Positions 35,369-61,130 of a DNA stretch of 64,000 bases are shown here, one piece after another. The notes under the pieces were generated by a model. It was not told the DNA's origin, made no database searches, and worked only from the letters and a program-made list of their open reading frames with translations. The stretch lies in assembly GCA_018897195.1 (NCBI GenBank), contig JAHILH010000006.1, positions 2,152 to 66,151 of the forward strand, read 5' to 3'. The stretch comes from Patescibacteria group bacterium (GTDB lineage: Bacteria > Patescibacteriota > Patescibacteriia > Patescibacteriales > UBA12075). The position numbers and the translations under genes are program-made. Every line of letters begins with the position of its first letter. Position 1 is the first letter of the stretch.

Positions 35369-35932
35369 ATGTTTAAAAATTTCGCTTTATTTGTTTTTGA
35401 GTTACTCAAAATTGTGCTAATCTCACTGGTTATTATCATTCCGGTGCGGTATTTTTTGATTCAGCCTTTTTATGTAAAAGGCGCTTCAATGGAGCCTAAT
35501 TTTCATGATAAAGAATACTTAATTGTTGACGAGATTTCTTATCGATTGAATAGCCCTCAACGAGGTGATATTATTGTTTTTCGTTATCCGCGTAACCCGC
35601 AAGAATATTTTATCAAGCGTTTGATTGGCTTGCCGGGGGAGAAAGTGCAAGTGAAAGATGGTGCTGTTTTTATTTTTAATAAAGAGCATCCGGAAGGATA
35701 TCGTCTTGACGAGGCTTATTTGGGTGATGGTGTGAAGACTTACGGTTTTTCAGAGGATGTGACTACTTTGGGCGATGATGAAATTTACGTTTTGGGAGAC
35801 AATCGTAACGCTTCAAAGGATTCACGAACATTCGGGCCGGTAAACAAAAGTTTCTTAATCGGACGAGTTTTGTTTAGAGGTTATCCGTTCGACAAGATCG
35901 GCACTTTTACAGCGCCACAGTATAGTTTTTAA
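35369..35932 (+). CDS. lepB: Signal peptidase I
   Basis: VKGASMEPNF (catalytic Ser), IKRLIGLPGE (Lys) and GDNRNASKDSR. Confidence 0.85.
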   Translation: MFKNFALFVFELLKIVLISLVIIIPVRYFLIQPFYVKGASMEPNFHDKEYLIVDEISYRLNSPQRGDIIVFRYPRNPQEYFIKRLIGLPGEKVQVKDGAVFIFNKEHPEGYRLDEAYLGDGVKTYGFSEDVTTLGDDEIYVLGDNRNASKDSRTFGPVNKSFLIGRVLFRGYPFDKIGTFTAPQYSF

Positions 35933-55203: not shown

Positions 55204-56004
55204 ATGGCGACCAAACAAGAAAGAAGGTTACATTATACGATTATCCTGCTGGCGATATTGCTGGCGGCAGCCCTTGGTGGCTGTGGTTATTATTACAACA
55301 AGATTGCTGGCTTTGAAAGTCAGAAAACAGAAGACATTGTAAAACTGAACAGGGAACATGCAACTGAATTGGCGGTTGCCAAGGGCAATCTTAAGGCAGC
55401 CGAAGAGAAATTAACTGTGGCTGAGGGAAAGATTGCCAAGTTTAGTGAGAAAGAGACGGCGTATAAGGAGAAGATTGACGAACTTAGGGGGGATGTAGGG
55501 CCTGGTAAACAGAAACAGGCATTAGCGCCAGCCAAGAAATCAACCCCAGTTGCATCGCCTGAAAAAAAGAAACACACAATCGTAGCAACTAATTCGCAAA
55601 AGACTATTGTTGCCGCGAAAACGATAAAGACTGTGCATAAAACCAGGCCGGCCAAGAAAATGAAGCCCCGTCACATTAAAAAGGCTCATAATCACAAAAA
55701 TGTTGGCCATATTAGCAAGAAGAGTAGTCATGGCAAAAAGCATGCGCACATCAACAAGAAGACTAGCCATGCCAAGAAGCAGCACAAGAGCACAATGAAG
55801 AAACATGAAAAAATTCAGACCGTTGTCAAAGACTTGTCTTTGTCAGCTCTTTGTGAAGAGCAGAGCGTGGATCGTCCTTTTTTCCTACAGTTGACGAAGG
55901 ATGCGGTTACGTATGGCTATACTGCAAAAGTGTGGGAAGTACAGCATGGTTCGACCAAAAATATCCAGATCTTGCTGACGAGTTCGGAAATGCCAAATTC
56001 GTAA
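55204..56004 (+). CDS. Membrane/lipoprotein-anchored coiled-coil protein with a Lys/His-rich basic region (islet gene 2)
   Basis: N-terminal helix ending in the lipobox-like LGGC, a coiled coil, then KKAHNHKNVGHISKKSSHGKKHAHINKKTSHAKKQHKSTMKKHEK. Canonical AAGGAGG lies 6 nt upstream of the ATG. Confidence 0.5.
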   Translation: MATKQERRLHYTIILLAILLAAALGGCGYYYNKIAGFESQKTEDIVKLNREHATELAVAKGNLKAAEEKLTVAEGKIAKFSEKETAYKEKIDELRGDVGPGKQKQALAPAKKSTPVASPEKKKHTIVATNSQKTIVAAKTIKTVHKTRPAKKMKPRHIKKAHNHKNVGHISKKSSHGKKHAHINKKTSHAKKQHKSTMKKHEKIQTVVKDLSLSALCEEQSVDRPFFLQLTKDAVTYGYTAKVWEVQHGSTKNIQILLTSSEMPNS

Positions 56005-56094
56005 TCAGACAAGTCTGTGTTTAAGATTTAATTTCTGAAGTTGGCTTGTATAATCTCGTAATCAAAGGGAAGCTTTGAATAAGATATAGCAAAG

Positions 56095-56116
56095 ACTAAG
56101 AGCAAAAGTTCTTAGT
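56095..56116 (+). ncRNA. Hairpin copy 1 of a three-member family with invariant GAGCAAAAGTTC core
   Basis: ACTAAGA-gcaaaagt-TCTTAGT (7-bp stem); core at 56100-56111. Confidence 0.35.
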
Positions 56117-56194
56117 ATTATATGTCAAAATTCAAGCAACAACTATCTAAATCCCTTAAAAATAGTTTCGAATAAACCGCAAAATTAGAAGTGG

Positions 56195-56226
56195 GTGACG
56201 CTAGGAGCAAAAGTTCCAGGTGCCTC
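56195..56226 (+). ncRNA. Hairpin copy 2 (same invariant core, different stem sequence)
   Basis: GGTGACGCTAGGA-gcaaaagt-TCCAGGTGCCTC, an imperfect stem with G-U pairs; core at 56205-56216. Confidence 0.35.
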
Positions 56227-56293
56227 ATTATTCAGAGATGTACGCGGTGATCAAAAAGTTTAAGACAGTTCTGGAAATGGGCTGTTATACAAT

Positions 56294-56343
56294 GAGTGGT
56301 TACTTAAGAGCAAAAGTTCTTGGTGCCACTCATTTTTTATTTT
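56294..56343 (+). ncRNA. Hairpin copy 3 with an extra outer stem and T-run (terminator-like)
   Basis: GAGTGG-ttac-TTAAGA-gcaaaagt-TCTTGG-tg-CCACTC, then attttttattttt; core at 56308-56319. Confidence 0.4.
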
Positions 56344-56361
56344 TAAAATTTGTATGATATA

Positions 56362-56712
56362 ATGAAGTCTATGAACAAACAACGATTATTATTAATATTT
56401 ATATTGATTTTTTTATCCAATATTACCAGTGGATGTGTTATTGATAACAATAGCAACAAAGAGCAGGTGCGTAGTAAAAATGTTGATGGCAAAACTGTGG
56501 GCTACGATAAAACGCTAAGCAAGAATATTGCGGTGAAAAAAGTAACCATACTAGATGGTTGCATTGGTTGTGGTGTTTGCGCAAAGATTGACCGGGAACA
56601 TTTTGTAATAGCTGCTCATCGGGCAAAAGTAATATCTCAAAATAATTTAGAGGCGCCATTGTTGACGGCAGCGATTAAGAATTGCCCAACCGCCGTAATT
56701 GCGTTGAATTAA
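56362..56712 (+). CDS. Small single-cluster ferredoxin-like protein with lipoprotein-type signal sequence
   Basis: LLLIFILIFLSNITSGC (lipobox-like ITSGC), then CIGCGVCAKIDREHF ... AIKNCPTAVI (CxxCxxC...CP). I prefer the ATG at 56362 or 56371 over the TTG at 56350. Confidence 0.6.
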   Translation: MKSMNKQRLLLIFILIFLSNITSGCVIDNNSNKEQVRSKNVDGKTVGYDKTLSKNIAVKKVTILDGCIGCGVCAKIDREHFVIAAHRAKVISQNNLEAPLLTAAIKNCPTAVIALN

Positions 56713-56715
56713 TTT

Positions 56716-57210
56716 ATGTTCCTAGAAACCCACACCTTCTTCGCCAACTTGAGTTGGATATTGTTGATTATTATTCTTGTCTCACGACCCTTGGCAGAAA
56801 TTACCAAAAATAAGATCTTATTTCGAGTTTTGCGCTATCGAAAACAATTGGGTGTAATCTGTGGATTAGCAGCTATTGTCCATGTACTATTCTTTTTACT
56901 TGGTAGCGGCTTGGCAGGAATTTATTTTTTAGATGCCGAGTTTTGGTCATTGCAAAATTTCTATGGCTGGGGGAGTTTAGCCGTGGTGGCGATGCTGTTT
57001 CCGCTTCTTACTTCTAATAATTTTTCCTTGCATTTTTTTGGCAAATACTGGAAAAAAATTCAGCGGGGAACCTATTTGGTTTTTATCGCAACCGCTATTC
57101 ATATCGCCATGGTCAAAGATGAGTGGTTTGAGGTGATGGGGCCGGTGCTTATTTGGTTATTTCTATGGACCTGGGCAGAGCTTAGGAGACGAAAAAGGTT
57201 TAAAGTTTAA
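56716..57210 (+). CDS. MsrQ/YedZ-like ferric-reductase-type heme-b membrane protein
   Basis: About five TM helices. The pattern VSRPLAEI..RYRKQLGVICGLAAIVHVLFFL ... LLTSNNFSLHFFGKYWKKIQRGTYLVFIATAIHIAM parallels E. coli MsrQ (TPLAR..R.RR.LG......H ; TS....R.LG..W..L....Y......H). Starts 3 nt after the ferredoxin gene. Confidence 0.55.
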   Translation: MFLETHTFFANLSWILLIIILVSRPLAEITKNKILFRVLRYRKQLGVICGLAAIVHVLFFLLGSGLAGIYFLDAEFWSLQNFYGWGSLAVVAMLFPLLTSNNFSLHFFGKYWKKIQRGTYLVFIATAIHIAMVKDEWFEVMGPVLIWLFLWTWAELRRRKRFKV

Positions 57211-57221
57211 TATTTAGCAAT

Positions 57222-57884
57222 ATGAGCATTTTTAAACATAAGGCTATTAAAAAAGTTTTAGCACTGACATTTTTTTTGTTTTTGATGGTGAGCATCTTTG
57301 GGGCCTTGTATTATTTTCGTGAGACTGTTTATTCTTCAGTGGATCAATTGGCTTTTTTTATAAAAGAGCATATTTTTGTTGGAATTCTCGCATTTGTTCT
57401 CATTTCTATTTTGGCCGTTGTTTTTTCTCCGCTCTCTAGTCTGCCGTTGGTGCCATCTGCCATTATTGCCTGGGGTGATTTTTGGACCTTTGTTTTTTTA
57501 TTATCAGGCTGGTTTATTGGATCCTTGGTTGGTTATTTTTTGGGGTATTTTACACGAGAGGGGGTTTTGGAAAAATTTTTTTCACTTAAAAAGATTGAGT
57601 ATTATAAAAGTCAAATTTCGCAGGATGCACAATTTTTATTAGTTTTGATTTTTCGTTTAGCCATTCCTTCTGAGATTACCGCTTATACATTGGGAATTGT
57701 GCGATATGATTTGAAAAAGTTTATGATCATTGCTGTTCTTTCAGAATTACCCTTTGCCTTGTTGGTTGTTTACTCTGGCAGGGCGGTCTATGATGGCAAT
57801 ATTTTTCTTTTTATTGGTATTATTACCTTTGCCTTGGTTTTTATTACATTTTTCTCCCTTTTGCTTAAGAAGAGATTTAAATAA
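57222..57884 (+). CDS. TVP38/TMEM64 (DedA-related, VTT-domain) membrane protein
   Basis: Polytopic, with FSPLSSLPLVPSAIIAWGDFW and FRLAIPSEITAYTLGI strings typical of the family. Confidence 0.55.
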   Translation: MSIFKHKAIKKVLALTFFLFLMVSIFGALYYFRETVYSSVDQLAFFIKEHIFVGILAFVLISILAVVFSPLSSLPLVPSAIIAWGDFWTFVFLLSGWFIGSLVGYFLGYFTREGVLEKFFSLKKIEYYKSQISQDAQFLLVLIFRLAIPSEITAYTLGIVRYDLKKFMIIAVLSELPFALLVVYSGRAVYDGNIFLFIGIITFALVFITFFSLLLKKRFK

Positions 57885-58439: not shown

Positions 58440-59480
58440 ATGAAACAAAAAAAATTCATAGCCTCGTTGGCGATTGCTTCTTTGGTGTTGGCCGTAGTTG
58501 GTTATTACCCAGGAGTAAACAGCGCCCAAGCCGTCAATTCGTTAACGGCCGCTAAGGCTCTATTGAGTGAGTCAGCCCCTGGTACGGCTGCAACAACGAC
58601 TATTTCTTTTACCTCAGGAACATCAACTGATGCGACTGGTTATTTCGAAGTGGTTATGCCAGCTGGTTTTGGCGATGTCTTGGTTGGTAACGTGACTTGT
58701 TCAACTGGTGCTGCTAGCGCGTTTAACACAGAAACAATTCGTTGTACTGGTGTTCAAGCCGCTGGTGTTAAAACTATTACCTTGGCCAATACAACTAATC
58801 CGACAGCAACTACAAGTCAAGTTATTAATATTGCTCACTACGATGTGGCTGGAAATTTAGCAGAACGGGTACAGGTTGTTGTACAAATCATTGATAATGT
58901 TTGGATGACAGCGCGTGTTGACGCTACCTTAACATTCACAGTGGCTGGTATGAATAAAGATGCCACTGTTAACGGTGCTGTTTGTACTGCTACCACGTCA
59001 GCAACTTCGACACCGTTTGGAACCTTAATTCCAACTATTCCATCAACTGTTTGTCAGGAATTGAAGGTGACAACTAATTCATCTGCTGGTTTTGTAGTCA
59101 CAGTCGAACAGGATACAGAAATGACATCTGATGGTAACGACAATATTAATAGCTTTAAAGATGCTGCTGATGGTGCTGGTTTGGGCGTAGCTGAGGCATG
59201 GGTTTCTCCAAGTACAGTTCTTGATAATGATTGGACTTATGGTCACATGGGTTTAACTTCAGATGATACAACTGTTGTTGGCATGGATTATAATGGTACA
59301 AAGTATGCCGGTCTTATTGGTTCAAGCGTTATGAATGTGATGACACATGATGGTCCAGCTGATGGATCAACTCAAGATAAGGGTAGAGTGGCAGTAGCCT
59401 ATACTGCGGAAATTAACGCCTTGCAACAAGCGGGTGATTATGAAAACACACTGACTTATATTGCGACACCGACTTACTAA
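58440..59480 (+). CDS. Secreted beta-rich surface protein, paralogue 1 (WxL-like C-terminal signature)
   Basis: Signal peptide ending SAQA/V and N-terminal LLSESAPGTAATTTISFTSG. The C-terminal half reads DATLTFTV..TPFGTL..ELKVTTNSSAGFVVTVEQD..YGHMGLTSDD..AGDYENTLTYIATPTY. Own promoter and terminator. Confidence 0.6.
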   Translation: MKQKKFIASLAIASLVLAVVGYYPGVNSAQAVNSLTAAKALLSESAPGTAATTTISFTSGTSTDATGYFEVVMPAGFGDVLVGNVTCSTGAASAFNTETIRCTGVQAAGVKTITLANTTNPTATTSQVINIAHYDVAGNLAERVQVVVQIIDNVWMTARVDATLTFTVAGMNKDATVNGAVCTATTSATSTPFGTLIPTIPSTVCQELKVTTNSSAGFVVTVEQDTEMTSDGNDNINSFKDAADGAGLGVAEAWVSPSTVLDNDWTYGHMGLTSDDTTVVGMDYNGTKYAGLIGSSVMNVMTHDGPADGSTQDKGRVAVAYTAEINALQQAGDYENTLTYIATPTY

Positions 59481-59893: not shown

Positions 59894-60083
59894 TCCGCTA
59901 TAGCCAAAGCTATAGCGCGACGAGGAAAAACAAAATAGTTTAAAATAAACTATAAACACAAACAAAAATAAGCTTATTTTTTAATTGATTGCCTAAATAA
60001 CAATCAATTTATCCCTTATAAATTTAAAATAAATTTAATTAATTAATCTGCCTCGGCGGATTGATTGCTTGAATTTTATTCCC

Positions 60084-61130
60084 ATGCAAAAAACAAAAAC
60101 AAGAAGATTTCTTGTTGCCTTAGTAATATTTTCTATGGTAACAACTTATTTGACAATGCCTACGGCAAAAGCGGCTTCATTTGATTCTGCAAAAGACACA
60201 ATCAGTGATTCAGCACCGAGTATTGTTACAACACATACTATCACAGTCAATCTAGGCACCGCTTTGGTAGCTGGTGATTATGTTAGTATTGATTTCGGCT
60301 CCTTTACTGGTGCTGTGGAAGGCAATACTAGTTGTGCTGCTTTTGGTGATTCAACTGCAACCACTACCGTTGACGGAGTTGGTTGTGAGGTTAACACTGC
60401 AGTTAGCTCAACAACAGATCAGACAATTACTGTTACTGGTGTAACCAGTCCAGTGGCTGGTGGTTACTCTGTTTACGCTCGAACTTATAATGCTAGTGGC
60501 GTAGAAATTGAAAATGCGCAAATGATTGTGTATTTAGTAGATGCTGTAACTGTTACCGCTCACGTTAACGCAACTTTGACATTCGGAGTTGCTGCAATTA
60601 ATGCTGGCGTTGAGATTAATGGCGCAACAACAACTGCTACTTCAACAGCAACTGCAGTTCCTTTCGGAACTTTGAGTTCTGTGGCACCTTCAGTAGTGGG
60701 CCAAGAGTTATCAGTAACAACTAATGCTAGTAATGGTTTTAGTGTGACTGTTCAACAAGACGGTGAAATGGTTTCAGCTGCCGGAGCTAACATTAACAGC
60801 TTTAAAATGGCTGCTAATAACGCTGGTTTAGCGACACCTGAAGTTTGGTCTGATCCAGTGGCAACATTGGGCAGTGATAATACTTATGGTCACATGGGTC
60901 TTACCACTGATGATTCTGATGGTGCTATCGGAACAGCCTTTGGTGGTGCTAAGCTTGCAGGTTTAGCTGCAACTGCTCCTATGGAGATTATGTCTCACAC
61001 TGGTGCAGCTGATGGTTCTACACCTGATAAGGGTAAAGTTAGAGTGGCTTACGAAGTTGGTATTACTGACTTACAAGAAGCTGGTGATTATCAATCAACT
61101 TTGACTTACGTTTGTACACCTACTTACTAA
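60084..61130 (+). CDS. Secreted beta-rich surface protein, paralogue 2
   Basis: About half of positions are identical to paralogue 1 by eye (NATLTFGV..VPFGTL..ELSVTTNASNGFSVTVQQD..YGHMGLTTDD..AGDYQSTLTYVCTPTY). I prefer the ATG at 60084 (MQKTKTRRFLVALVIF) over the TTG at 60069. Confidence 0.6.
   Translation: MQKTKTRRFLVALVIFSMVTTYLTMPTAKAASFDSAKDTISDSAPSIVTTHTITVNLGTALVAGDYVSIDFGSFTGAVEGNTSCAAFGDSTATTTVDGVGCEVNTAVSSTTDQTITVTGVTSPVAGGYSVYARTYNASGVEIENAQMIVYLVDAVTVTAHVNATLTFGVAAINAGVEINGATTTATSTATAVPFGTLSSVAPSVVGQELSVTTNASNGFSVTVQQDGEMVSAAGANINSFKMAANNAGLATPEVWSDPVATLGSDNTYGHMGLTTDDSDGAIGTAFGGAKLAGLAATAPMEIMSHTGAADGSTPDKGKVRVAYEVGITDLQEAGDYQSTLTYVCTPTY

Follow-up and report, generated by a model that had tools for sequence, protein, structure and literature searches.

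A predicted lipoprotein ferredoxin and a predicted one-haem ferric-reductase-domain protein form a candidate transmembrane electron-transfer pair in a Patescibacteria bacterium

The membrane protein MsrQ of Escherichia coli has R77, R78, H91, S135, W147, H151, and H164 as its defined residues, and in both MsrQ and STEAP a single haem lies on the outer side and a flavin on the inner side (PMC12525009). Electrons are expected to reach MsrQ from a flavin reductase in the cytoplasm and not from quinol, and the MsrQ haem has an Em of about -250 mV. Elsewhere, MsrQ-like and DUF4405/PepSY-like cytochromes occur with ApbE-flavinylated extracytosolic lipoproteins, and these ApbE-associated systems have been proposed to act in the reduction of iron or in electron transfer to the outside of the cell (PMC8238504; PMC11334425).

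Here we describe two adjacent genes from a Patescibacteria group bacterium, located in a window of 64,000 nucleotides (the whole stretch of DNA that was analysed; all positions refer to it), whose products would move electrons by a related route. The extracytoplasmic Fe-S proteins known so far receive their clusters in the cytoplasm and are then exported by Tat; Fe-S carriers on the outer side of the cytoplasmic membrane include NapG and subunits of the DmsB/NrfC/HybA type. We know of no mechanism that loads a Sec-exported ferredoxin outside the cell. CPR bacteria (Patescibacteria) are regarded as lacking electron-transport chains and are generally thought to be without haem synthesis.

The first gene (ORF A; 56371 to 56712, plus strand) encodes 113 amino acids from the ATG at 56371 (MNKQR...), a start supported by the public annotation and by homologues; another in-frame start lies at 56362. 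Its translation contains LLLIFILIFLSNITSGC, CIGCGVCAKIDREHF, and NCPTAV. The predicted product comprises a signal peptide (residues 1 to 21), a lipobox cysteine (Cys22), a disordered linker (residues 23 to 57), and a Fer4_13 [4Fe-4S] domain (residues 58 to 113), and it matches Pfam PF13370 (Fer4_13) at 34.8 bits (E = 2.7e-8), above the gathering cut-off of 24.5. The AF2 model shows a helix at residues 3 to 19, a low-confidence linker, and a domain with pLDDT of 96 to 98; its best PDB fold match is the Thermotoga maritima 4Fe-4S ferredoxin (1vjw; 36% identity, rmsd 1.8 Å, TMt 0.83). The predicted cluster ligands, encoded on the plus strand between 56560 and 56685, are C64 (56560 to 56562), C67 (56569 to 56571), C70 (56578 to 56580), and C105 (56683 to 56685), all of them invariant in ferredoxin alignments A2, A3, and A4. 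Judged by family and modelled fold, ORF A is a single-cluster Fer4_13 ferredoxin, in agreement with an earlier sequence-only reading of this DNA.

The second gene (ORF B; 56716 to 57210, plus strand) begins 3 nt past the TAA of ORF A and encodes a 164-amino-acid, MsrQ/STEAP-like ferric-reductase-domain (FRD) membrane protein with five transmembrane (TM) helices (h2 to h6) in a predicted N-out/C-in orientation. Its translation contains IVHVLFF, AIHIAM, and LTSNNFSLHFFGKYWKK; both ORFs, their coordinates, their 3-nt spacing, and every string quoted in the sequence-only reading were found as given there. Because both have conserved homologues, ORF A and ORF B are real genes rather than chance ORFs. 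Residues 12 to 126 of ORF B align with positions 6 to 120 of Pfam PF01794 (Ferric_reduct) at 34.1 bits (gathering cut-off, 28; E = 3.2e-8), which places the protein in the family proposed for it. The best named model is NCBIfam MsrQ (NF003831), with an alignment that spans only profile positions 53 to 182 of 212 and a score of 31.7 bits, far under the equivalog cut-off of 130. The AF2 model (pLDDT 89) has five helices and no counterpart of the first ~35 residues of MsrQ (h1). Its top PDB folds are STEAP1, STEAP2, and then the NOX5 TM domain (probability 0.9 to 1.0, with weak Foldseek E values of 0.02 to 1.4), and the STEAP matches 8ucd, 7tai, and 6y9b have a probability of 1.0, TMq of 0.65 to 0.69, and 13 to 15% identity. 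Loop charges are +16 inside and -5 outside in ORF B, and range from +9 to +16 inside and from -5 to +3 outside across the FRDs. These matches put ORF B in the MsrQ/STEAP branch of the FRD superfamily but outside MsrQ proper. The MsrQ/YedZ identity first suggested for it survives in that MsrQ is the best named model; it fails on the score, on the five rather than six TM helices, and on msrP, since no msrP (Oxidored_molyb) match turned up among the 39 window ORFs scanned or in paired loci L001, L003, L004, and L062.

The only TM histidines conserved in FRD alignment A1 are H56 (56881 to 56883) and H129 (57100 to 57102, plus strand), the predicted axial ligands of a haem b, and across 58 FRD homologues the two are either kept jointly or lost jointly. 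The predicted flavin-site residues S100, W112, and Q116 lie between them, with R42 and K43 upstream (56839 to 56844, plus strand). R42, H56, S100, W112, Q116, and H129 are invariant in A1; R42 and S100, which are flavin-pocket residues outside the search pattern, are also conserved in nearly all homologues. R42, K43, H56, S100, W112, Q116, and H129 each correspond to one of the experimentally defined residues of MsrQ, whose numbers are uniformly 35 higher (PMC12525009). The inner-haem positions of ORF B are occupied by R42 and Q116, and the two bis-His pairs of NOX/FRE-type di-haem proteins (four TM histidines on h3 and h5) are not present. The sequence-only reading had called this a di-haem protein, a description that has to be withdrawn: there is one conserved histidine pair, and R42, K43, S100, W112, and Q116 take the place of a second haem. 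ORF B is thus predicted to be a one-haem FRD with an outer bis-His site (H56/H129) and an inner flavin site. By analogy with MsrQ, the potential of such a haem would be low enough to reach the ferredoxin cluster; typical [4Fe-4S]2+/1+ potentials are more negative than -250 mV, so that transfer from haem to cluster may be uphill.

The pair recurs in seven other lineages, with different flanks and in both gene orders. In L001, L003, L004, L058, and L062, a ferredoxin precedes a five-TM FRD; the flanks of these pairs are unrelated, and the gap between the two genes ranges from -4 to +40 nt. The reverse order, a six-TM FRD followed by a lipobox ferredoxin, is found in L009 from a Gracilibacteria genome. 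In the natural fusions P0108 and P0115, a six-TM FRD is followed by a basic loop (RRHHK or KKRGLLRR), a seventh TM helix (TM7), a linker, and Fer4_13. A His-bearing membrane protein adjoins the ferredoxin in 10 of 10 informative loci. The two genes stay together in every informative related locus and are fused in some organisms. The family match, the conserved cysteines, and the co-occurrence on which the sequence-only reading had said it would stand or fall were all found. FRDs have five TM helices in all six ferredoxin-first pairs and six in all three FRD-first or fused cases. This count only hints at a ferredoxin signal helix standing in for the absent FRD helix h1, an idea weakened because a cleaved lipoprotein signal could not act as a helix.

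A profile search, with ~1200 hits, recovered at least 262 ferredoxin clusters (50% identity; E ≤ 1e-10). All of the 146 top profile matches carry CxxCxxC (146/146), 123 have the C-P motif, and 140 have a hydrophobic N-terminus. Some exported ferredoxins pair with a 113-amino-acid protein that is weakly DUF4405-like (a sub-threshold match); comparison of this alternative partner with the FRD by hhalign was not significant. No third conserved gene for an acceptor was found in the paired loci examined, and none of the 39 window ORFs scanned was an acceptor gene. The features that define ApbE-flavinylation systems were absent near the window pair and its paired homologues, and no apbE lies beside the His-containing FRDs. 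In CPR genomes, ApbE lies beside another FRD clade, one that lacks the histidines. Nothing like this exported ferredoxin and FRD system turned up in searches of the literature.

The predicted SPII-type lipoprotein signal peptide (56371 to 56436, plus strand; MNKQR-LLLIFILIFL-SNITSG-C) ends at Cys22 (56434 to 56436), the predicted lipidation site. Its lipobox matches a PS51257-like pattern, with a -3 residue (Thr) that is not the commonest there. A lipobox cysteine occupies the same place in four of six paired close homologues and in 78 of 146 family representatives, and is missing from the L001 and L003 ferredoxins (the other two of the six). The n-region carries a charge of +2 or +3 in the window protein and close homologues, and the apolar core of the h-region is 10 to 17 residues long in close homologues and ~10 in the window protein, where it precedes the polar lipobox region. 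Family-wide mean charges are +1.9 for the n-region and -2.8 for the linker. A twin-arginine motif is absent from the window ferredoxin, as had been noted; its n-region is MNKQR, those of close homologues read KKR, KKK, or KK, and of 146 family members a single one has an RR.[hydrophobic][hydrophobic] motif. The one signal peptidase seen in the window is of type I (35369 to 35932). The core of the tethered ferredoxins is near neutral (-1 to +4) and that of untethered relatives averages -3.9; a near-neutral core is compatible with the outer face, which is acidic, and does not match the strongly basic inner one.

The TM7 of the fusions implies that their ferredoxin lies on the opposite side from the FRD C-terminus, which would be outside the cell if the FRD is oriented as in MsrQ. 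Four features together favour an extracytoplasmic Fe-S protein over a cytoplasm-facing anchor: the presence of a lipobox, the shortness of the h-region, the charges in the n-region and the linker, and the fusions with an FRD-TM7-ferredoxin layout. The sequence-only reading had offered both; its option of an unusual extracytoplasmic Fe-S protein is the one favoured, and the same four lines of evidence count against the other.

Some support is left for a cytoplasmic ferredoxin. It is conceivable, though we think it unlikely, that the ferredoxin is a cytoplasmic donor on an uncleaved N-out/C-in anchor, feeding the flavin site or haem of an FRD that reduces an external target directly, as STEAP does with Fe(III). 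The lack of a Tat motif would then pose no problem, with cluster loading in the cytoplasm, and the missing lipobox cysteine of L001 and L003 would also fit. Moreover, in ferredoxin-FNR-FRD-like fusions (L035, L036, and L052), Fer4_13 is joined to FAD_binding_6, NAD_binding_1, and an FRD-like TM domain, and the ferredoxin domain must be cytoplasmic because it has no signal. However, the FRD-like domains of these three fusions have lost both haem histidines and so represent a different subtype. The n-region is always positive and the linker acidic on average, the reverse of what an N-out anchor needs, and the short apolar core leads into a lipobox in the proportions of close and distant members given above. 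In the FRD-TM7-ferredoxin fusions, the ferredoxin domain and the cytoplasmic C-terminus of the FRD come to lie on opposite sides of the membrane, and the inner face of the FRD carries +12 to +16 (+9 in L009) whereas tethered ferredoxin cores are neutral or basic.

A second alternative accepts export and changes the function: the four-Cys domain would bind iron, an Fe-S cluster, or some other metal outside the cell and serve in iron or Fe-S scavenging or delivery, or as a redox or metal sensor, and electrons from the FRD would assemble or repair the metal centre, or release it reductively so that it can be taken up. In L001, Rrf2-SufC-SufB-SufD-SufS comes immediately downstream of the pair and on its strand, a His/Lys-rich lipoprotein is encoded just 5' of the pair in the window, no downstream acceptor enzyme is conserved, and Sec export implies that the apo-protein meets its metal outside. 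The Suf linkage is nevertheless confined to one locus, no transporter is conserved beside the pair, and the domain folds like a typical electron-transfer ferredoxin, its CxxCxxC...CP motif being invariant, and we regard this explanation too as improbable. That the adjacency is incidental, or that the ORFs are one split or read-through gene (same frame, with TAA-TTT between them), is very hard to credit: the two ORFs do share a frame in the window, L058, and L003, and true fusions exist elsewhere, but the frame varies (+1 in L001 and L004, an overlap as TAATG in L062), L003 has two stops, the fusions place the FRD ahead of the ferredoxin, the reverse of the order here, both ORFs have a start of their own and encode a complete domain, and the pairing recurs in at least seven lineages with differing flanks.

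Immediately upstream of the pair is a structured non-coding element (56060 to 56346, plus strand) with three hairpins tipped by GAGCAAAAGTTC at 56100, 56205, and 56308, the third of which is extended and followed by a terminator-like T-run. The element has fold z-scores of -6.1 and -5.6 and a compensatory change in its terminator stem. It is 80 to 84% identical to the region 5' of the L058 pair (near 100% over 56140 to 56270), and despite this the window and L058 ferredoxins are only 57% identical. An Rfam search gave no match at E ≤ 1, and BLAST and motif searches of the examined loci found the element only in the window and L058. A Cheo/LexA-box reading of GAGC-N4-GTTC is less favoured: all six copies share an asymmetric mismatch that is compatible with G.U pairing, and all lie at the tips of hairpins, which speaks for a role at the RNA level. 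The element could act as a regulatory leader or be a small RNA in its own right, and its membership of the module is uncertain. Downstream, 11 nt past the FRD stop, a gene for a VTT/DedA-family membrane protein (57222 to 57884, plus strand; Pfam VTT_dom, E = 1.1e-16) is probably co-transcribed with the pair; it is absent from the homologous loci examined and shows no conserved adjacency to the pair.

On balance, we favour the reading in which the two genes form a minimal transmembrane electron module that runs from flavin through haem b to a tethered extracytoplasmic [4Fe-4S] cluster. The pair stands for a large family, so far unstudied, whose members probably carry electrons across the cell membrane. 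The FRD would hold its flavin at the cytoplasmic face, in the pocket formed by R42, K43, S100, W112, and Q116, and a single haem b in the outer leaflet between His56 and His129. The ferredoxin would be made with a Sec-type lipoprotein signal, exported unfolded, and anchored on the outer face of the membrane through lipidated Cys22; in some relatives an uncleaved signal anchor may replace the lipid. On a flexible linker of ~35 residues, it would carry one [4Fe-4S] cluster on C64, C67, C70, and C105, loaded independently of Tat. As with MsrQ/Fre, a reductant in the cytoplasm, either a flavin reductase or reduced flavin, would supply electrons that pass via flavin and haem b to the ferredoxin and from there to an extracytoplasmic acceptor. 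Since no third gene is conserved, the acceptor would most plausibly be a small oxidant such as Fe(III), serving iron assimilation or as an electron sink of a fermentative cell. The family assignments, conserved ligands, operon conservation, fusions, and signal-peptide features are observed here; the cofactor occupancy, the direction of electron flow, the Tat-free external cluster loading, and the acceptor are inferred.

More tentatively, these ferredoxins could be a large unrecognised class of extracytoplasmic Fe-S proteins that use Sec/lipoprotein export and gain their cluster without Tat. With either a one-haem FRD or a small, weakly DUF4405-like, three-TM, His-rich partner, they might form an extracellular conduit by which respiration-less bacteria (Parcubacteria and Gracilibacteria) dump fermentation electrons or reduce iron for uptake. 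If they are loaded outside, hundreds of ferredoxins with Sec/lipoprotein signals would challenge the rule of folded Tat export and pose the problem of how Fe-S clusters could be assembled or maintained outside the cell. In CPR bacteria, a two-gene transmembrane conduit would offer a concrete means, open to testing, of balancing redox, reducing iron, or exchanging electrons with a host. The small size of the pair (113 and 164 amino acids) makes expression, spectroscopy, and topology mapping practical, and natural controls are at hand in the fusions and in the two alternative membrane partners.

The pair shares with E. coli MsrQ (YedZ) the FRD superfamily, the site for a single outer haem on two histidines (H91/H164, corresponding to H56/H129), the residues of an inner flavin pocket (R77/R78/S135/W147, corresponding to R42/K43/S100/W112), and an operon partner that acts, or here would act, outside the cytoplasm. 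Unlike MsrQ, the window protein has no helix 1 (five TM helices versus six) and has Gln at the H151 position, as in STEAP. It also differs from MsrPQ in the lack of msrP, its partner being a predicted small Fe-S lipoprotein without a Tat signal rather than a Tat-exported molybdoenzyme. STEAP1 to STEAP4 provide the best structural matches, with one outer haem, an inner flavin, and Gln at the MsrQ H151 position, and they send electrons outward to Fe(III)/Cu(II). In contrast to the window FRD, however, they are eukaryotic and STEAP2 to STEAP4 bear an N-terminal NADPH-oxidoreductase domain, and STEAPs reduce metal ions directly at the haem without a separate protein carrier. The ApbE-flavinylation systems follow the same logic, a transmembrane b-type cytochrome beside a secreted or lipidated small redox carrier, but their carrier is an FMN-binding domain loaded outside by ApbE, whereas here it is a predicted [4Fe-4S] ferredoxin with no known external loading system. 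In further contrast to the window FRD, the MsrQ-like proteins associated with ApbE are described as having two haems and, often, a fused NAD-binding domain. Soluble Fer4_13 ferredoxins (1vjw, Desulfovibrio africanus Fd I, and Pyrococcus furiosus Fd) have the same fold and CxxCxxC...CP ligands; they are ~60 amino acids long, cytoplasmic, and strongly acidic, whereas the window protein combines a signal peptide and lipobox with a ~35-residue linker and a near-neutral core. Proteins of the NapG/DmsB type are multi-cluster, rely on folded Tat export or hitch-hiking, and belong to large enzyme complexes, in contrast to the one predicted cluster and Sec/SPII-type signal of the window ferredoxin. The pair extends the MsrQ-like extracytosolic electron-transfer modules as a new variant.

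The ferredoxin gene and the membrane protein gene proposed by the sequence-only reading are both present on the forward strand, exactly where that reading had placed them. ORF A (56362 to 56712) starts at the ATG at 56371 in the public annotation and in all homologues and encodes 113 aa (MNKQR...); ORF B (56716 to 57210; 164 aa) starts 3 nt past the TAA of ORF A. Both products are publicly annotated from Candidatus Parcubacteria bacterium, labeled only "ferredoxin" and [quoted passage not shown] The ORF A product opens with a positive n-region and a hydrophobic segment (apolar core, ~10 residues), followed by a lipobox-like SNITSG-C22, from which a polar linker of ~35 residues leads to a C-terminal domain with the cysteine arrangement C64-x2-C67-x2-C70 ... 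C105-P. This product scored above threshold against Pfam Fer4_13 (34.8 bits; threshold, 24.5), as did ORF B against Pfam Ferric_reduct (34.1 bits; threshold, 28), the ferric-reductase domain (FRD).

The best named NCBIfam model for ORF B was MsrQ, at 31.7 bits against a cutoff of 130 and aligned only over profile positions 53 to 182 of 212. According to a 2025 study of Escherichia coli MsrQ, MsrQ and STEAP are an FRD subgroup with a single outer-side heme (ligands in MsrQ, H91 and H164) and a cytoplasmic-side flavin, held in MsrQ by R77, R78, S135, W147, and H151; position 151 is Gln in STEAP (PMC12525009). Residues R42, K43, H56, S100, W112, Q116, and H129 of ORF B each lie exactly 35 below their MsrQ counterparts, an offset that explains the absence of helix h1 as well. 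In an alignment of six homologues, H56 and H129 were the only transmembrane histidines conserved and H106 was not, which removes the di-heme part of the initial claim. Across 58 FRD homologues drawn from genomic and metagenomic data, H56 and H129 were either both kept or both replaced, as expected of a ligand pair. The search pattern for these homologues included W112, K113, Q116, and Y120, whose invariance there carries no weight; R42, H56, S100, and H129 were outside the pattern. From these alignments, ORF B is best described as a predicted member of the MsrQ/STEAP branch, with 5 TM helices, one outer heme, and an inner flavin pocket: the MsrQ-like assignment stands at the level of the branch and fails at that of the MsrQ equivalog.

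Loop charges in seven paired FRDs were unambiguous (+9 to +16 for predicted inside segments, −5 to +3 for predicted outside segments), and the 5-TM FRD is thus predicted to be N-out/C-in. In the predicted topology, the flavin-pocket residues sit at the cytoplasmic helix ends and the two histidines lie 13 to 14 residues deeper, towards the outside. AlphaFold2 models of both proteins were built from small alignments. The FRD model has five long helices (mean pLDDT, 89), and its top Foldseek matches in the PDB were STEAP1 and STEAP2 (probability, 1.0; TMq, 0.65 to 0.69), followed by NOX5 transmembrane domains. In the ferredoxin model, an N-terminal helix (residues 3 to 19) and a low-confidence linker (pLDDT, about 50) precede a very confident ferredoxin domain (pLDDT, 96 to 98), for which the top match was the Thermotoga maritima 4Fe-4S ferredoxin 1vjw (36% identity; rmsd, 1.8 Å; TMt, 0.83), followed by other single-cluster ferredoxins.

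Close homologues were few in a word-indexed search (six FRDs and two ferredoxins). The same pair was nevertheless found on the homologues' contigs among unrelated neighbors—between an efflux operon and Rrf2-SufCBDS at L001, between topoisomerase I and PGI at L003, and at the further loci L004/L005 and L058—so that the two genes do co-occur in other genomes, a point on which the initial reading depended. One more locus, from Gracilibacteria (L009; genetic code 25), came from a genome scan and has the order reversed, a 6-TM FRD preceding a ferredoxin with a textbook lipoprotein signal (MNKKTIIILFLVLLNLLSSC). At L062, from a ferredoxin-side lookup, the genes for a lipobox ferredoxin and a 160-aa 5-TM FRD follow each other with overlapping stop and start codons (TAATG), in the vicinity of Thioredoxin_3, DsbD_2, and nitroreductase genes. 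Spacing within pairs ranges from −4 to +40 nt across loci. Read-through of ORF A into ORF B is unsupported, the in-frame arrangement of the window not being conserved. At all 10 informative loci the exported ferredoxin adjoins a His-bearing membrane protein, either an FRD (seven loci) or a small ~113-aa protein (three loci). In a Peribacteria genome (L008, 3193 to 4952), a His-containing 6-TM FRD that has no ferredoxin neighbor lies 11 nt past the stop of a gene for an HI0933-like FAD flavoprotein, a candidate cytoplasmic electron donor for FRDs of this kind.

A family profile of five full-length tethered ferredoxins, searched against 1.84 billion cluster representatives, matched 1215 proteins at E ≤ 1e-3 and 262 at E ≤ 1e-10. 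Among the 146 best new matches, CxxCxxC was present in every one, a fourth Cys followed by Pro in 123, a hydrophobic N-terminal segment in 140, and a lipobox in 78 (69 under a stricter pattern); a twin-arginine-like motif occurred in only one. The same 146 proteins have an n-region with a mean charge of +1.9, an S/N/T-rich linker (median, 38.5 residues; mean charge, −2.8), and a ferredoxin core with a mean charge of +0.7, compared with −3.9 in 35 untethered relatives. Many exported ferredoxins are paired or fused with the ~113-aa protein in place of an FRD. It has three helices and a WxHVExG...FH...H motif with invariant histidines (H77, H91, and H95 in L064 numbering), and its genes lie directly beside the ferredoxin at L060 (3345 to 3692), L064 (211 to 552), and L065 (444 to 575). 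Profile comparison with the FRD gave no significant similarity, and the match to DUF4405 was below threshold (22.8 bits; threshold, 26.7). Recent work identified DUF4405 proteins as heme b cytochromes (PMC11334425); given the subthreshold match, a small dimeric cytochrome b is a possible identity for this partner.

Four family representatives are natural fusions. P0108 (301 aa; named "YedYZ heme-binding membrane subunit/ferredoxin" by JGI) and P0115 (309 aa) share a plan that begins with an FRD of six helices, both histidines included, and continues through a short basic loop (EARRHHK and KKRGLLRR, respectively), helix 7, and a polar linker (of net acidic charge in P0108) to Fer4_13; the seventh hydrophobic helix of P0115 still ends in FGGC. 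In P0060 and P0138, the small three-helix protein leads through a lipobox helix and a linker into the ferredoxin. If the FRD is N-in/C-in, as established for MsrQ and supported by loop charges, the fused ferredoxin must be outside. Fusions and signal-peptide features together make an extracytoplasmic ferredoxin the best-supported predicted topology. The sequence-only reading had offered this location alongside a ferredoxin that donates electrons to the FRD from the cytoplasm, an arrangement we consider improbable and retain because a cytoplasmic ferredoxin partner is possible for the FRD fold: three metagenomic polypeptides (L036, 1933 to 3855; L035, 365 to 2296; L052, 1741 to 3192) join Fer4_13, FAD_binding_6, NAD_binding_1, and an FRD-like membrane domain, and their signal-less ferredoxin domain must be cytoplasmic. 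However, these FRD-like domains have lost both heme histidines, fall below Pfam significance, and belong to a different, His-less clade. L036 and L035 carry an extra, extracellular-looking C-terminal domain; for L052, translation with genetic code 25 gives one unbroken ORF, whereas code 11 gave no ferredoxin-profile match. Other CPR members of the His-less clade (L010, 3903 to 6200; L012, 548 to 2998; L032, 1973 to 4181; L038, 122 to 1667) lie between a gene for ApbE, a flavin transferase, and one for a separate FNR-like FAD/NAD protein. Their heme histidines are replaced (F/Y and I/Y) and the flavin-pocket residues kept, which suggests a heme-free, flavin-only transmembrane electron path. For the extracytoplasmic ferredoxin, the main difficulty is biochemical, since we know of no route for cluster loading of a Sec-exported ferredoxin.

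With the ferredoxin outside, a flavin in the inner pocket would be reduced by a cytoplasmic reductant and would pass electrons to the outer heme b and on to the tethered [4Fe-4S] cluster, the ~35-residue linker letting the ferredoxin shuttle between the heme edge and its acceptor. In E. coli MsrQ, the electron donor is the flavin reductase Fre, not quinol, and the midpoints are about −340 mV for FMN and about −250 mV for heme (PMC12525009). No third gene is conserved beside the pair across loci, and the 39 window ORFs scanned encode no MsrP, ApbE, Tat components, or heme enzymes, so a small oxidant is a more likely acceptor than a dedicated enzyme. Three observations hint at an iron-related role: the Rrf2-Suf linkage in L001, the STEAP-like fold, and published proposals that connect MsrQ-like systems with assimilatory iron reduction. 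An electron sink for fermentation would fit equally well.

Several other features of the window were recorded, all on the forward strand. An extended −10-like element (TGATATAAT, within 56355 to 56373; L058 counterpart, TGTTATAAT) stops 7 nt short of the ATG at 56371, so the ferredoxin mRNA may be leaderless, starting at 56371 and not 56362; a simple promoter scan omitted the element because it has no −35. Directly upstream of the ferredoxin gene, a structured noncoding element (56060 to 56346; L058 counterpart, 75 to 340) has three hairpins tipped by GAGCAAAAGTTC, which occurs in only these three copies in the whole 64 kb. A T-run follows the last hairpin, which is extended and in which an A-T pair of one species is replaced by G-C in the other, a compensatory change. 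The element is ~100% identical to L058 over about 130 nt (adjacent proteins, 57%), with fold z-scores of about −6 and neither an Rfam match nor a conserved ORF; possible identities are a leader of the riboswitch type, an RNA bound by protein, and an independent sRNA/3′ UTR. Upstream, a predicted lipoprotein of 266 aa (55204 to 56004; ...LLAAALGGC...) without a Pfam family combines a coiled coil with an extended low-complexity stretch rich in His and Lys (...HKTRPAKKMKPRHIKKAHNHKNVGHISKKSSHGKKHAHINKKTSHAKKQHK...); a possible function is metal binding at the cell surface, close to the redox pair. Two secreted paralogues, each about 350 aa long (58440 to 59480 and 60069 to 61130) with common motifs (...NINSFK...YGHMGLT...DKG+V.VAY...AGDY..TLTY..TPTY) are probably specific to CPR and associated with the surface or with pili; the former, the sole paralogue scanned, matched no Pfam family. 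A secreted 419-aa protein (1701 to 2960) with an N-terminal thioredoxin-like CPHC motif and a subthreshold Thioredoxin_2 match, whose gene is followed by one for a YibE/F-family membrane protein, is possibly another extracytoplasmic redox protein.

The window module resembles both MsrPQ and the ApbE-dependent MsrQ-like/DUF4405/PepSY systems in pairing a membrane b-type cytochrome with a secreted or lipidated carrier, yet it belongs to neither. Unlike MsrPQ, it has no MsrP, no sixth helix, and a subthreshold equivalog score; unlike the ApbE-dependent systems, it has no ApbE and no FMN-binding carrier. Our literature search returned no account of Fer4_13 ferredoxins that are exported or are lipoproteins, nor of FRD proteins as their partners. 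The surprise lies in a large family of Fe-S proteins that are apparently extracytoplasmic and independent of Tat.
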